This document shows, piece after piece, positions 985 through 61,395 of a stretch of DNA of 64,000 bases. Source of the DNA: Eledone cirrhosa (Eukaryota); assembly GCA_964016885.1 (NCBI GenBank), contig OZ024743.1:55862001-55926000 (forward strand), in the 5' to 3' direction. Positions within the stretch are counted from its first letter, which is position 1, and every line of letters starts with the position of its first letter. The notes beneath the pieces are model-generated. The model was not told the DNA's origin and searched no databases. It saw only the letters and a program-made list of their open reading frames with translations. The position numbers and the translations under genes were made by a program.

Positions 985-3900
985 CACTACACAACAACAC
1001 TACATCACAACACTACATCACACTACAACACTACACCACAACACTACACTATATCACAACATTACATCACGCTACAACACTACACCACACCACAACACTA
1101 CACCACAACACTACACCACAACACTAAACCATACCACAACACTACATTACACCACAACACTACACCACAAAGCTGAACCACACGACACCACTACATCACA
1201 CCACAACACTACACCACACCACATCACACCACAACGCTACATCACATCCAACACTACATCACACCATACCACACCACACCACACTACACCACAACACTAC
1301 ACAACAACACTACACCACAACACTACACTACACCACACCACAACACTACACCACACCACAACACTACACCACAACACTACATTACACCACAACACTACAT
1401 CACACCACAGCACTACACTACACCACAACACTACACCACAAGACTACGCCACACCACAACACTACACCACACCACAACACTACACTACACCACAACACTA
1501 CACCACACTACAACACTACATCACATAACAACACTACACCACACCACAACACTACATCACAACACTATACCACAACACTACACCACACCACAACACTACA
1601 CTACATCAAAACACTACACCACACCACAGCACTACACCACATTACAACAGTACACCACAACACTACACCACACCACAACACTACACTACATCACACCACA
1701 ACACTACACCACACCCCACTACACTACATCAAAATACTACATCACACCACAACACTACACCACATTACAACACTACACCACAACACTACACCACACCACA
1801 ACACTACACCACAACACTACAACACATTACAACAGTACACCACAACACTACACATCAACACCACACCACACTACACAACAACACTACATCACAACACTAC
1901 ATCACACTACAACACTACACCACAACACTACACTATATCACAACAGTACATCACGCTACAACACTACACCACACCACAACACTACACCACAACACTACAC
2001 CACAACACTAAACCATACCACAACACTACATTACACCACAACACTACACCACAAAGCTGAACCACACGACACCACTACATCACACCACAACACTACACCA
2101 CATCACACCACAACGCTACATCACATCCAAAACTACATCACACCATACCACACCACACCACACTACACCACAACACTACACAACAACACTACACCACAAC
2201 ACTACACTACACCACAACACTACACCACAACACTACATTACACCACAACACTACACCACACCACAACACTACATCACACCACAACACTACACTACACCAC
2301 AACACTACACCACAAGACTACGCCACACCACAACACTACACCACACCACAACACTACACTACACCACAACACTACACCACACTACAACACTACATCACAT
2401 AACAACACTACACCACACCACAACACTACACCACAACACTATACCACAACACTACACCACACCACAACACTACACTACATCAAAACACTACACCACACCA
2501 CAGAACTACACCACATTACAACAGTACACCACAACACTACACCACACCACAACACTACACTACATCACACCACAACACTACACCACACCCCACTACACTA
2601 CATCAAAATACTACATCACACCACAACACTACACCACATTACAACACTACACCACAACACTACACCACACCACAACACTACACCACAACACTACAACACA
2701 TTACAACAGTACACCACAACACTACACATCAACACCACACCACACCACACTACACCACAACACTACGTCACACCACAACACTACACCACAACACTACACC
2801 ACAACACCACACCACACTACACCACAACACTACGTCACACCACAACACTACACCACACCACAACACTACACAACATCAAAACACGACATCACACCACAAC
2901 ACTACACCACATCCAACACTACACCACAACACTACACTACAACACTACACCACAACACTACACCAAACCACAACACTACACCACATTACAACATTACACC
3001 ACAACACTACACCACACTACAACACTAAACTACATCACACCACAACGCTACAACACACCACAACACTACACTACTTCACAACACAACATTACACCACATT
3101 ACAACACTACACCACAACACTACACCACATCACTACACCACATCACTACACCATACCACAACACCACACCACACCACAACACTACACTACACCACAACAC
3201 TACACCACACCACAACACTACACCACACCACAACACTACACCACAACACTACACCACACCACAACACTACACCATACCACAACACTACACCACAACACTA
3301 CATTACACCACAACACTACACCACAACACTACACCACAACACTACACCACACCACCACACTACACCACAACACTACACCACATCACAACACTACACCACA
3401 CCACAACACTACACCACAACACTACACCACACCACAACACTACACCACACCACAACACTACACTACACCACAACACTACACCACACTACAACACTACATC
3501 ACATAACAACACTACACCACACCACAACACTACACCACAACACTATATCACAACACTACACCACACCACAACACTATACTACATCAAAACACTACACCAC
3601 ACCACAGCACTACACCACATTACAACAGTACACCACAACACTACACCACACCACAACACTACACTACATCACACCACAACACTACACCACACCCCACTAC
3701 ACTACATCAAAACACTACATCACACCACAACACTACACCACATTACAACACTACACCACAACACTACACCACACCACAACACTACACCACAACACTACAA
3801 CACATTACAACAGTACACCACAACACTACACCACAACACTACACATCAACACCATACCACAACATAACACACCACACCACAACACTACACCACAACACTA

Positions 3901-4730
3901 CACCACACCACAACACTACACCACACCACAACACTACACCACACCACAACACTACACCATACCACAACACAACACACCACAACACTACACCACAACACTA
4001 CACCACACCACAACACTACACCACACCACAACACTACACCACACCACAACACTACACCATACCACAACACGAAACACCACACCACAACACTACACCCCAC
4101 AACACTACACCACACCACACGACATCACACTACACCACATCACACCACAACATTAAACTACATCGCAATACCACACCACAACACTACACCACATCACAAC
4201 ACCACAACCAACACTACACCAAACCACAACGCTTCACCACACCACAACACTAGACCACATCACATCACACCACATCACACCACAACACAACACTACACCA
4301 CACCACACCATATCACATCACAACACACCACACCATAGCACAACGCTGCACCCCTACCACACAGCAACACCACACCACAGCAACACCACACCACACAACA
4401 CCACAACACCACAACACCACACAGCAACATCACACCACACCACAACAATACGCCACAACGCCACAACACCACAACACACCGCAACAACACATCACAACCC
4501 CACATCACACCGCACCACATCACATCACACCACATCACACCACATCACAACACTACACCACATTACAACACTACACCACACCACAGCACCACAACACCAC
4601 ACCACATCACAGCACACCACACCATAGAATACATATCACATCACACCACACATTTCACACATATACCATAAACCACATATTTCACACACACACATCACAT
4701 GCCAGACACATCCACCACACACACACATAT
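985..4730. repeat. CACAACACTACAC-type degenerate satellite with internal ~0.88-kb tandem duplication
   Basis: Units such as caacactacaccacac. Rare variants (acaaagctgaaccacacgac, acaagactacgcc) recur at ~1168/~2051 and ~1438/~2311. Confidence 0.9.
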
Positions 4731-5985: not shown

Positions 5986-6051
5986 TATTTTATCTGACGA
6001 AGGCATGCCATATTTTTAATATGGTATCCCTGAAATATGTATAATGAAATA
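5986..6051 (+). ncRNA. Minimal type I hammerhead ribozyme (family A)
   Basis: tattttat-CTGACGA-stem II (agg/cct, atgccatatt/aatatggtat)-GAAA-tatgta-TA-atgaaata; stem I pairs over 8 bp with one G.U. Confidence 0.75.
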
Positions 6052-6091
6052 AATATGGTTTTATAAATATAGTTTCCATTTGTTTAATATC

Positions 6092-22320: not shown

Positions 22321-22450
22321 TTTGCTCTGATTATTTAATTTATTAATTCTTCATTGAGCCACATCGTGAAAAGTTGCCAAAACACATATATACCTGTGAC
22401 TTTGTTTAATTGGTGTATGTGTAAATATTTATATATCTATATATATATAT

Positions 22451-22481
<31 letters not shown>

Positions 22482-22493
22482 TAATATAATATA

Positions 22494-22541
<48 letters not shown>

Positions 22542-22663
22542 GACAAACATAGAATATTCGAAAATATTCTGTATGTTTAGAATAAACATTTTGAAGACCC
22601 AATCGCTATAGAATAGAATACGTCACGTATTACAATTTGAGATTCTCGATAAAAGCAAGGGAA

Positions 22664-22706
22664 GTAACCTACGCGTTTCATTCTTATTAGAAATCATCAG
22701 GATTAC
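22664..22706 (-). ncRNA. Type I hammerhead ribozyme, left-arm copy (also at 22976, 23288, 23600, 23912, 24224)
   Basis: Reverse complement of gtaatc-CTGATGA-tttctaataagaat-GAAA-cgcg-TA-ggttac. Confidence 0.88.
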
Positions 22707-24600
22707 ATATCCAATGCTTTTATCGAGAACGACACAGCTAGAGACTTATAGAATACTTAGCTGTGTACAGGAACTGGTTTGAAAGAGCGGTAGCCGGTCC
22801 GGCAGAAATTAGAATTTGGATTTAATGCTCTGAAATAGCGATATATATGTGAAGACAAACATAGAATATTCGAAAATATTCTGTATGTTTATAATAAACA
22901 TTTTGAAGACCCAATCGCTATAGAATAGAATACGTCACGTATTACAATTTGAGATTCTCGATAAAAGCAAGGGAAGTAACCTACGCGTTTCATTCTTATT
23001 AGAAATCATCAGGATTACATATCCAATGCTTTTATCGAGAACGACACAGCTAGAGACTTATAGAATACTTAGCTGTGTACAGGAACTGGTTTGAAAGAGC
23101 GGTAGCCGGTCCGGCAGAAATTAGAATTTGGATTTAATGCTCTGAAATAGCGATATATATGTGAAGACAAACATAGAATATTCGAAAATATTCTGTATGT
23201 TTATAATAAACATTTTGAAGACCCAATCGCTATAGAATAGAATACGTCACGTATTACAATTTGAGATTCTCGATAAAAGCAAGGGAAGTAACCTACGCGT
23301 TTCATTCTTATTAGAAATCATCAGGATTACATATCCAATGCTTTTATCGAGAACGACACAGCTAGAGACTTATAGAATACTTAGCTGTGTACAGGAACTG
23401 GTTTGAAAGAGCGGTAGCCGGTCCGGCAGAAATTAGAATTTGGATTTAATGCTCTGAAATAGCGATATATATGTGAAGACAAACATAGAATATTCGAAAA
23501 TATTCTGTATGTTTATAATAAACATTTTGAAGACCCAATCGCTATAGAATAGAATACGTCACGTATTACAATTTGAGATTCTCGATAAAAGCAAGGGAAG
23601 TAACCTACGCGTTTCATTCTTATTAGAAATCATCAGGATTACATATCCAATGCTTTTATCGAGAACGACACAGCTAGAGACTTATAGAATACTTAGCTGT
23701 GTACAGGAACTGGTTTGAAAGAGCGGTAGCCGGTCCGGCAGAAATTAGAATTTGGATTTAATGCTCTGAAATAGCGATATATATGTGAAGACAAACATAG
23801 AATATTCGAAAATATTCTGTATGTTTATAATAAACATTTTGAAGACCCAATCGCTATAGAATAGAATACGTCACGTATTACAATTTGAGATTCTCGATAA
23901 AAGCAAGGGAAGTAACCTACGCGTTTCATTCTTATTAGAAATCATCAGGATTACATATCCAATGCTTTTATCGAGAACGACACAGCTAGAGACTTATAGA
24001 ATACTTAGCTGTGTACAGGAACTGGTTTGAAAGAGCGGTAGCCGGTCCGGCAGAAATTAGAATTTGGATTTAATGCTCTGAAATAGCGATATATATGTGA
24101 AGACAAACATAGAATATTCGAAAATATTCTGTATGTTTATAATAAACATTTTGAAGACCCAATCGCTATAGAATAGAATACGTCACGTATTACAATTTGA
24201 GATTCTCGATAAAAGCAAGGGAAGTAACCTACGCGTTTCATTCTTATTAGAAATCATCAGGATTACATATCCAATGCTTTTATCGAGAACGACACAGCTA
24301 GAGACTTATAGAATACTTAGCTGTGTACAGGAACTGGTTTGAAAGAGCGGTAGCCGGTCCGGCAGAAATTAGAATTTGGATTTAATGCTCTGAAATAGCG
24401 ATATATATGTGAAGACAAACATAGAATATTCGAAAATATTCTGTATGTTTGTCTTCACATATATATCGCTATTTCAGAGCATTAAATCCAAATTCTAATT
24501 TCTGCCGGACCGGCTACCGCTCTTTCAAACCAGTTCCTGTACACAGCTAAGTATTCTATAAGTCTCTAGCTGTGTCGTTCTCGATAAAAGCATTGGATAT

Positions 24601-24643
24601 GTAATCCTGATGATTTCTAATAAGAATGAAACGCGTAGGTTAC
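24601..24643 (+). ncRNA. Type I hammerhead ribozyme, right-arm copy (also at 24913, 25225, 25537, 25849)
   Basis: Stem I gtaatc/ggttac, CUGAUGA core, stem II ttct-aata-agaa, GAAA, palindromic stem III ACGCGU, GUA cleavage triplet. Stem I is extended by ttctcgataaaagca/tgcttttatcgagaa. Confidence 0.88.
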
Positions 24644-26048
24644 TTCCCTTGCTTTTATCGAGAATCTCAAATTGTAATACGTGACGTATTCTATTCTATA
24701 GCGATTGGGTCTTCAAAATGTTTATTATAAACATACAGAATATTTTCGAATATTCTATGTTTGTCTTCACATATATATCGCTATTTCAGAGCATTAAATC
24801 CAAATTCTAATTTCTGCCGGACCGGCTACCGCTCTTTCAAACCAGTTCCTGTACACAGCTAAGTATTCTATAAGTCTCTAGCTGTGTCGTTCTCGATAAA
24901 AGCATTGGATATGTAATCCTGATGATTTCTAATAAGAATGAAACGCGTAGGTTACTTCCCTTGCTTTTATCGAGAATCTCAAATTGTAATACGTGACGTA
25001 TTCTATTCTATAGCGATTGGGTCTTCAAAATGTTTATTATAAACATACAGAATATTTTCGAATATTCTATGTTTGTCTTCACATATATATCGCTATTTCA
25101 GAGCATTAAATCCAAATTCTAATTTCTGCCGGACCGGCTACCGCTCTTTCAAACCAGTTCCTGTACACAGCTAAGTATTCTATAAGTCTCTAGCTGTGTC
25201 GTTCTCGATAAAAGCATTGGATATGTAATCCTGATGATTTCTAATAAGAATGAAACGCGTAGGTTACTTCCCTTGCTTTTATCGAGAATCTCAAATTGTA
25301 ATACGTGACGTATTCTATTCTATAGCGATTGGGTCTTCAAAATGTTTATTATAAACATACAGAATATTTTCGAATATTCTATGTTTGTCTTCACATATAT
25401 ATCGCTATTTCAGAGCATTAAATCCAAATTCTAATTTCTGCCGGACCGGCTACCGCTCTTTCAAACCAGTTCCTGTACACAGCTAAGTATTCTATAAGTC
25501 TCTAGCTGTGTCGTTCTCGATAAAAGCATTGGATATGTAATCCTGATGATTTCTAATAAGAATGAAACGCGTAGGTTACTTCCCTTGCTTTTATCGAGAA
25601 TCTCAAATTGTAATACGTGACGTATTCTATTCTATAGCGATTGGGTCTTCAAAATGTTTATTATAAACATACAGAATATTTTCGAATATTCTATGTTTGT
25701 CTTCACATATATATCGCTATTTCAGAGCATTAAATCTAAATTCTAATTTCTGCCGGACCGGCTACCGCTCTTTCAAACCAGTTCCTGTACACAGCTAAGT
25801 ATTCTATAAGTCTCTAGCTGTGTCGTTCTCGATAAAAGCATTGGATATGTAATCCTGATGATTTCTAATAAGAATGAAACGCGTAGGTTACTTCCCTTGC
25901 TTTTATCGAGAATCTCAAATTGTAATACGTGACGTATTCTATTCTATAGCGATTGGGTCTTCAAAATGTTTATTATAAACATACAGAATATTTTCGAATA
26001 TTCTATGTTTGTCTTCACATATATATCGCTATTTCAGAGCATTAAATC

Positions 26049-26123
<75 letters not shown>

Positions 26124-45283: not shown

Positions 45284-45347
45284 TATTTTATCTGATGAAA
45301 ACGTACCAATGTTGTCTTGGTACCCTTGAAATATATATAATAAAATA
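45284..45347 (+). ncRNA. Hammerhead ribozyme (family A)
   Basis: tattttat-CTGATGA-aa acgtaccaa tgttgtc ttggtac cctt-GAAA-tatata-TA-ataaaata. Confidence 0.7.
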
Positions 45348-45391
45348 AATATGGTTTTATAAATATAGTTTCCATTTATTTAATATCATTG

Positions 45392-58160: not shown

Positions 58161-59363
58161 CACCACCAATGCCACTATCATCAATACCACCACCGCCTTA
58201 ACACTACCTCTACTAGTACCATCACTACAACCACCACCACCAATGCCACTATCATCAATACCACCACCGCCTTAACACTACCTCTACTAGTACCATCACT
58301 ACAACCACCACCACCAATGCCACTATCATCAATACCACCACCGCCTTAACACTACCTCTACTAGTACCATCACTACAACCACCACCACCAATGCCACTAT
58401 CATCAATACCACCACCGCCTTAACACTACCTCTACTAGTACCATCACTACAACCACCACCACCAATGCCACTATCATCAATACCACCACCGCCTTAACAC
58501 TACCTCTACTAGTACCATCACTACAACCACCACCACCAATGCCACTATCATCAATACCACCACCGCCTTAACACTACCTCTACTAGTACCATCACTACAA
58601 CCACCACCACCAATGCCACTATCATCAATACCACCACCGCCTTAACACTACCTCTACTAGTACCATCACTACAACCACCACCACCAATGCCACTATCATC
58701 AATACCACCACCGCCTTAACACTACCTCTACTAGTACCATCACTACAACCACTACCACCAATGCCACTATCATCAATACCACCACCGCCTTAACACTACC
58801 TCTACTAGTACCATCACTACAACCACCACCACCAATGCCACTATCATCAATACCACCACCGCCTTAACACTACCTCTACTAGTACCATCACTACAACCAC
58901 CACCACCAATGCCACTATCATCAATACCACCACCGCCTTAACACTACCTCTACTAGTACCATCACTACAACCACCACCACCAATGCCACTATCATCAATA
59001 CCACCACCGCCTTAACACTACCTCTACTAGTACCATCACTACAACCACCACCACCAATGCCACTATCATCAATACCACCACCGCCTTAACACTACCTCTA
59101 CTAGTACCATCACTACAACCACTACCACCAATGCCACTATCATCAATACCACCACCGCCTTAACACTACCTCTACTAGTACCATCACTACAACCACCACC
59201 ACCAATGCCACTATCATCAATACCACCACCGCCTTAACACTACCTCTACTAGTACCATCACTACAACCACCACCACCAATGCCACTATCATCAATACCAC
59301 CACCGCCTTAACACTACCTCTACTAGTACCATCACTACAACCACCACGACCAATGCCACTATC
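58161..59363. repeat. 74-bp near-perfect tandem repeat, ~16 copies
   Basis: caccaccaatgccactatcatcaataccaccaccgccttaacactacctctactagtaccatcactacaaccac; period 74 (58168, 58242...). Confidence 0.95.
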
Positions 59364-59658
59364 AGTATGACTACAGTAGAGGGTCGGACGCCATGCTTTG
59401 ACGTATAGAGTTACGGCCCTTGCCATTCTGAGTTCAAATCCCGCCGAGGTTAACTTTGCCTTTCATCCTTACGGAGGTCGATAAAATAAAGTACCAGTAA
59501 TACACTGAGATAATTGCTGGCCTTGTGCCAAAAGTAGAAATAATTATGACAACTATCATCATCACTATCCCCACCACCACCACCAACAACAACGACAACA
59601 ACATCATGTCACCACCATCATCACCACTATCACCACTACCACCACAACCACCACCACC

Positions 59659-60433: not shown

Positions 60434-60486
<53 letters not shown>

Positions 60487-60488
<2 letters not shown>

Positions 60489-61395
60489 TATGTATACGTA
60501 CATATATATATATGTATACAGACGTACAGTAGCATATATATACATACATACACACACATATATATATGTACGTATGGGTTTACCGAACATTTATTATGAT
60601 ACTCGGTTTGTTTGTAAACAAACAGCCCGAATTATTAGCCGTACAGTGTTCGTCAACCATCGGTGCCCTTTTGTTCAACATTGACAAACGAACGATGAAC
60701 TAATTTCTAGCTTATTAGCTGTCATCAGCACTCTATACCTTCCTGTCAGTCGATTGAACGTTTGAAAGTATATACGTTCCTTATCCATATTAACGGCTGA
60801 GCAGCCTAATTTCCATATCGAGTGAGTTAGTCGGTCGGGTGTACCGAAAACGATAAATGGAAAAAATGAAATTTCATTTCTCACTCTTAGTACGGCTGTT
60901 ACTTAAATATAAGTATGTATACGTACATACATATCTGTATACAGACGTACAGTAGTCATTTTTTCCATTTATCGTTTTCGCTACACCCGGCCGACTAACT
61001 CACTCGATATGCAAATTAGGCTGCTCAGCCGTTAATATGGATAAGGAAAGTATATACTTTCAAACGTTCAATCGATACGGTGCTGCTGACAGTTAATAAG
61101 CTAGAAACTAGTTTATCGTTCCTTTGTCAGTGTTGAACAAAAGGGCAACGATGGTTGCCGAACACTGTACGGCTAATAATTCGGGCTGTTTGTTCACACA
61201 CAAACCGAGCATTATAATAAATGTTCGGTAAACCCATACGTACATATATATATATATATATATATATATGTGCATGTATGTATGTATATATACATACTAC
61301 TGTACGTCTGTATACATATATGTATGTACGTATACATACTTATATTTAAGTATCAGCCGTACTAAGAGTGAGAAATAAAATTCCAGTTTTTCCTT
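60487..61395. mobile_element. Family-E ~424-bp unit: >1-mer tandem followed by an inverted copy
   Basis: aagtatgtatacgtac at 60487 and 60911; strand switch at ~60956. HHR motifs on the minus strand at ~60694-60733 and on the plus strand at ~61077-61119. Confidence 0.8.

Follow-up and report, generated by a model that had tools for sequence, protein, structure and literature searches.

Insertions of a hammerhead retrozyme of Eledone cirrhosa start at two internal sites, with a short alternating run as a likely alignment aid at one of them

About two thousand insertions of a hammerhead-bearing, tandemly repeated unit in TA microsatellites of the Eledone cirrhosa genome (3.0 Gb) share two start points of copying, here called A and B. 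The two sites, the use of one of each per insertion, the TA flanks, the register of the junctions at A with an alternating (AT)4 run of the unit, and the shift of the B junction together with a single substitution are read directly from the genomic junctions. The run itself is probably an alignment aid at one of two starts that an enzyme would fix. It is probably not the determinant of TA targeting.

Structure of the insertion and its unit

The window, i.e. the whole 64,000-nt stretch of contig OZ024743.1 that was analysed, contains a two-armed (head-to-head) palindrome of a 312-nt unit at 22539-26053, inside (TA)n (Table 1). The units in the window were identical apart from two single substitutions, and copies were 99% identical. 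With its length and a GC percentage of 34.6, the unit fits the size and composition of non-LTR retrozymes (150-450 bp, GC below 50%).

Table 1. Features of the two-armed insertion, in positions of the window.
Feature	Position	Strand	Remarks
Left target microsatellite, (TA)n with interruptions	22425..22538		Pure TA from 22500
Site A junction	22529..22539	+	Flank against unit ATATATATGT: 9/10 bases match in register
Left arm, 6 units + 40 nt	22539..24450	+	Antisense to ribozyme; cDNA sense on +
Type I hammerhead motif, first unit	22650..22715	-	Recurs every 312 nt; sub-threshold Rfam match
First internal 36-nt "tail" copy, site B (u276-277) to site A (u312)	22814..22849	+	
First internal (AT)4 run, u303-310, then GT	22841..22848	+	
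Palindrome centre, at the unit's own imperfect hairpin	24417..24450		
Right arm, 5 units + ~50 nt including tail	24444..26053	-	cDNA sense on minus
Site B junction	26052..26053	-	Dinucleotide AT (u276-277) is all that is shared with flank
Right target microsatellite, (AT)28	26052..26107		

Unit positions (u) are numbered from u1, the G of GAAGAC, at 22851. G 22539 (u1) is the first unit-specific base at site A, and the final T of the left microsatellite (22538) is equally readable as u312.

The hammerhead in each unit sits on the outward-pointing strand, and its core (CUGAUGA/GAAA/GUA) and stems are visible, so that a type I motif is present in the unit. The Rfam model HH9 scored 20.6 bits (E 0.023), under the gathering score of 52, at which no match was returned in the window. 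Cleavage is predicted from the conserved core to take place after GUA, between 22670 and 22669, which puts site A 131 nt from it along the RNA and the (AT)4 run, in an internal position, at 133-140 nt. No ORF over 34 amino acids was found in a scan of the unit, which thus codes for no protein, and the RT + GIY-YIG ORF of an autonomous Penelope-like element was absent from it. In folding, the whole unit surpassed its shuffles (z -3.7). The 161 nt around the tail were not clearly better than shuffles (z -1.6), and therefore no structure at the start sites is claimed. By the sequence features tested, the element is a non-LTR retrozyme with a Penelope footprint.

A preceding sequence-only reading had described the left end correctly. 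Pure (TA)n at 22500-22538 runs directly into GAAGAC (from 22539), whereas every internal junction has the form GCG-ATATATAT-GT-GAAGAC. The (AT)4 tract is the sole alternating run over 4 nt in the unit, and the ribozyme sense of the left arm is minus. The right end (26052-26053), overlooked in that reading, is a second TA-joined start in another phase of the unit, with AT shared. Elsewhere in the window, at 58161-59364, a 74-nt unit is repeated in 16 copies of 99% identity within a CAC-rich region.

Start sites of the genomic copies

Two sets of cDNA-5′ ends were collected, one from 38 further loci fetched by BLAST of the unit (41 elements, 75 ends) and the other from 15 loci found through an anchor in the ribozyme core, which takes no account of the ends (16 elements, 28 ends). 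The first set gave 34 ends at A, 36 at B and 5 elsewhere, and the second 14, 13 and 1, respectively. The A and B windows together make up 11% of the phases, yet they took 70/75 and 27/28 of the ends. Where both ends of a two-armed element lay at A or B, one of each was used in 28/29 cases in the first set and in 11/11 in the second. The sole B/B element (L048, 2059-4150) has mirrored flanks and may be an inverted duplication or an assembly fold-back.

It had been predicted from the window that the starts would not be uniform over the 312 phases and that the flanks would be TA-enriched, and both proved correct, the latter with a TA run at the join in 70/75 ends versus 5% of window positions. 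That the starts would cluster at the AT run was borne out for site A and failed for site B, where AT alone is shared; the flanks at B were as TA-rich as those at A. The spacing of 36 nt from A to B equals the size of the Penelope "tail" (30-40 nt), which is bounded by two start sites, and the inverted arms and the microsatellite target are both features of Penelope-made insertions. In the whole genome, the run with its context was present in 17,443 exact internal copies, and a 310-nt sister unit was about eight times commoner than the 312-nt unit.

Register of the junctions at sites A and B

At site A of the window, nine of the last ten unit bases match the flank in register, with G311 as the sole mismatch, and this phase is the best of 312 (rank 1) for match to (AT)5. 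The genome contained 140 exact copies of the junction without GT and 59 of the junction that keeps it; 28 of the first 30 GT-keeping matches were true ends, and the second end of the GT-keeping elements was B in 14/14 where visible. Classes were assigned on the first 100 matches of each pattern at A and B, and in families H and X described below, with the register at A and the family X counts taken by hand. For the 312-nt unit (first 100 of 245 matches at A), 52 junctions were GT-less, 29 GT-keeping, 15 otherwise in register and 4 out of register, and for the 310-nt sister (first 100 of 1,713) the numbers were 46, 41, 11 and 2.

Register with the run was accordingly kept in 96/100 and 98/100 of these junctions. 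To this extent the idea that the RNA carries a built-in priming site complementary to TA holds, as the run aligns the primer; it does not hold for the pair of sites, since the run explains one of the two and the modal product lies 2 nt past it. Site-A junctions with no terminal match were in register in 13 cases versus 3 out of register (p 0.02, in a small test), and the 10 commonest of them could be first-base misincorporations. A subfamily without the run was sought among polymorphic sites seen in at least three of the loci examined, and none was found, for which reason the run's own contribution at A is not isolated; a T-ended primer with one base pair could account for most of the site-A register. 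In contigs from two other organisms the run was unchanged, in 1 and 5 contigs, which are too few to speak of conservation.

Site B in turn provides a natural experiment. A single substitution between the 312-nt unit (GAATTTGG) and the 310-nt sister (GAAATTGG) shifts the AT by one base. Among the first 100 of 199 matches to the former template, 67 had the junction AT-TT-GG and 4 had AT-T-GG. For the latter template (first 100 of 1,409) the preference was reversed, with AT-TT-GG once and AT-T-GG 62 times. The B junction shifts along with the AT, and therefore pairing, of two bases, sets the register. Matches of one base were rare at B (4 and 3 of 100) and were the mode at A (52 and 46 of 100), which suggests help from the upstream run at A. 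For TA match, site B ranked among about 54-146 of 312 phases. In the sister unit another ATATA lies in register 3-7 nt beyond A, and 4/100 junctions used it; from this little use it follows that the start position is fixed. The run probably does not choose the start site.

The closest competitor to alignment by the run, which we nevertheless hold to be unlikely, is purely positional initiation. In this reading the start is set by the enzyme, pairing is confined to one or two bases at the primer's end, and the run is there by coincidence or as what remains of a captured TA flank. One or two bases do suffice at site B and in family Y (see below), the modal product at A matches at a single terminal base, A+T make up 65% of the unit, and no homology is reported in the accessible text of an in vitro study (PMC11167929). 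Coincidence accords poorly, however, with the finding that the best-matching phase of 312 is site A itself, with the in-register excess among junctions without terminal match, with one-base matches being the mode at A and rare at B, and with the UA-rich short ends of two unrelated families.

Other hammerhead families and the choice of target

The retrozyme of family X is unrelated and about 470 nt long. It contains internal TA runs far longer than (AT)4, and these were read through in 15/16 passages; the passages come from six elements and are not independent, and the sixteenth is a nested insertion. Its short end lies at a 5-nt or 4-of-5 match, where about 60 of the first 100 of 4,220 matches join. 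At 60486-61393 the window itself contains a two-armed family X insertion in (TA)n, one end of which is short and the other long. In another locus (L064, ~2311-4312) an array of the 312-nt unit lies within an internal TA run of a family X unit, i.e. retrozymes target each other.

Short ends of family H joined to TA numbered 12,038. Of the first 100, 89 used a single junction, past which the sequence was TATAT or TAAATATA; with the latter template the mismatch was kept in 0/100 (first 100 matches). The family adjoins pieces of ORFs with DKT or CxCX5C motifs in 6/30 loci, and as these motifs are given for the Hydra clade in the accessible text of PMC8557442, family H is likely the end of a Hydra element. 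The 312-nt unit had no match to family H ends in 30 loci, the comparison being with this family alone. Directly beyond the short end, families X and H both have 5 to 7-of-8 UA bases.

The short ends of family Y shared 1 base with the flank in 3/6 cases and up to 4 in the others, and the commonest of them has no run. A run is thus dispensable, as these ends share 1-4 bases. Family Y (L033, L035, L041, L180) has a hammerhead stem II like that of the 312-nt unit and tails of about 55-70 nt. Further hammerhead motifs in the window were located at ~5994-6090 (+), 45327-45390 (+), 40125 (-), 35553 (-) and 10291 (-), the first three of which are family H ends joined to (TA)n. Long RT + GIY-YIG frames were found in L155 (2806-5622, -), L156 (2275-5565, +) and L157 (2488-5022, +), and these Penelope-like elements are candidate autonomous partners.

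These families bear on a stronger version of the priming idea, in which the AUAUAUAU run both selects the TA microsatellites and dictates where copying starts. It draws on the top rank of site A for (AT)5 match, on the perfectly paired product in 25-41 of 100 site-A junctions, and on the UA bases past the short ends of families X and H. We consider it improbable, as half of the starts are at site B with two shared bases, the modal A product skips the GT, family X passes longer TA runs, the commonest family Y short end lacks a run, and TA targeting has been tied to the endonuclease linker in the accessible text of Craig et al. (PMC8557442). The same site B, family X and family Y findings limit the built-in priming site of the sequence-only reading, which is partly supported on the whole. 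Because A and B belong to one event, pairing at A might still, in formal terms, have a role in target choice. The run more likely aligns the primer at an enzyme-fixed site.

Arms and palindrome centres

Diagnostic alleles were common to both arms in 84/87 comparisons from 68 elements, counted per element, when 2,000 shuffles gave 13% (maximum 32%), which is consistent with one template or one source for the two arms. The centre lay at most 40 nt from the mirror position in 10/34 elements, versus 26% expected, and centres without filler overlapped by at least 2 bases in 11/22, versus 18% expected. Centre positions and overlaps therefore favour a join between the 3′ ends of two target-primed cDNAs rather than fold-back. 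In one element (L058, 1815-8768) an arm of about 22 units (6,954 nt) faces an arm of about one unit. No clean pattern emerged for higher-order periodicity in long arms.

Fold-back, with the second arm self-primed at the unit's hairpin and one target-primed end per insertion, is very improbable and largely refuted as a general route. It does suit the centre in the window, which is exactly in the hairpin with a 7-nt overlap between the arms (24444-24450) and may still be such a case, and self-priming is proposed for Penelope inverted repeats in the accessible text of PMC3846280. Mirror-position centres were nevertheless at about the expected frequency, some arms cannot fit within their partner (L031), and a self-primed arm would have no reason to terminate at a fixed site showing AT microhomology.

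Origin of the GT-less junction

Internal junctions lacked the GT in 33/17,476 cases (0.19%) versus about half or more at the ends. Given this and its 140 exact genomic copies, the junction in the window is no product of chance. Internal divergence was 0.28% in GT-less and 0.27% in GT-keeping elements (p 0.69), i.e. both are of the same age; elements with identical first 200 bases were dropped, after which 29 GT-less elements and 28 that keep GT remained, and the divergence estimate used 26 per class. The same haplotypes produced both kinds of ends. In contigs of the public run X1, possibly the source sample, G>A was found at that base in 22 contigs (60,140/491,200 in depth), and the GT-less junction is thus not an assembly artefact. 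As the loss of GT is end-specific, unrelated to age and present in run X1, it arises at initiation. The form is due either to priming with an A-C mismatch or to a 2-nt slip within TGTG, which yield identical letters and which sequence alone cannot separate.

That all copies were perfectly primed on the run and later lost the GT by assembly error or microsatellite slippage is barely conceivable, since, although TGTG next to (AT)n could contract, the counts, the equal age of the classes, the shared haplotypes and the run X1 contigs refute it, save for a contraction both immediate and specific to long flanking tracts.

Relation to known elements

According to the accessible text on the Penelope element Poseidon PAc and the Hydra clade (Frangieh et al. 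2024, PMC11167929; PMC8557442), these share with the 312-nt element two starts bounding a tail of 30-40 nt, which is found at one end. Further common traits are that copying begins 3′ of the hammerhead, that both strands are cut and extended, that the arms are inverted and that (TA)n is the target. For PAc in vitro, two internal start sites flank the tail, and both strands are cut and extended (PMC11167929). The 312-nt element differs in that it encodes no protein and its arms are multimers of one unit. Moreover, its junctions follow 2-9 matching bases, whereas PAc initiation is reported in that text as non-homologous to the target (PMC11167929).

The tandem non-coding unit of 150-450 bp, the type I hammerhead and the low GC are in turn those of metazoan non-LTR retrozymes as given in the available parts of PMC7229834 and 10.64898/2026.07.22.740005, where mobilisation by Penelope-like elements via target-primed copying is proposed. 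Unlike in these accounts (Cervera and de la Pena 2020, PMC7229834; Li, Clavereau and Pollet 2026, 10.64898/2026.07.22.740005), as far as their available text goes, the insertions here are two-armed, with fixed starts, a tail and a microsatellite target; the words "tail" and "priming" are absent from the available text of Li et al. (10.64898/2026.07.22.740005), and "microsatellite" and "inverted" from that of Cervera (PMC7229834).

An RNA stretch complementary to a simple-repeat target and near a hammerhead is also present in the endonuclease-deficient Terminon/Athena elements, in the accessible part of a review (PMC6431247), where it comes straight after the ribozyme, at the 3′ terminus of the RNA, and pairs with the telomere overhang. 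The present run, unlike this, has an internal position, 133-140 nt away from the predicted cleavage, and is used by one of two starts, with a mismatch tolerated; Terminon-type structure is, in the same part of the review, limited to telomere-associated elements. A literature search, with most subscription papers outside it, gave no account of junction register, or of microhomology, where copying of retrozymes or Penelope elements starts. What was known already is the class of element, its tail and its preference for TA; to these the present junctions add the evidence on register.

Proposed mode of initiation and its significance

From the junctions we infer that both strands of a (TA)n tract are likely cut by a Penelope-type enzyme supplied in trans. 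Each of the two cut ends then likely primes cDNA, at one of two fixed positions that lie 36 nt apart within the RNA. The 3′ end of (TA)n would pair with local UA bases, i.e. the AUAUAUAU run, possibly over its full length, at A and the bare AU at B. Pairing of the cut TA end with the AU run of the RNA, often imperfect, would set the exact join, and the two cDNA 3′ ends would then join in the middle of the insertion.

It is possible, though we lean somewhat against it, that endonuclease-dependent Penelope elements and their retrozymes use a telomerase-like alignment region. This would be a short, selected UA-rich patch just 3′ of a start fixed by the protein, able to pair with the cut (TA)n primer and to tolerate a mismatch near the primer's 3′ end, and a single enzyme dimer would prime the two DNA ends on the same small RNA circle. 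The accessible text of PMC8557442 treats as an open question how inverted insertions arise from Penelope-type enzymes and why these favour microsatellites. The about two thousand young insertions represent a natural mutagenesis series on this question, in which primer-template pairing of 2-9 bases sets the join and the site stays fixed, and from them come both a template of 312 nt and precise predictions for reconstituting the reaction with telomerase's closest relatives.
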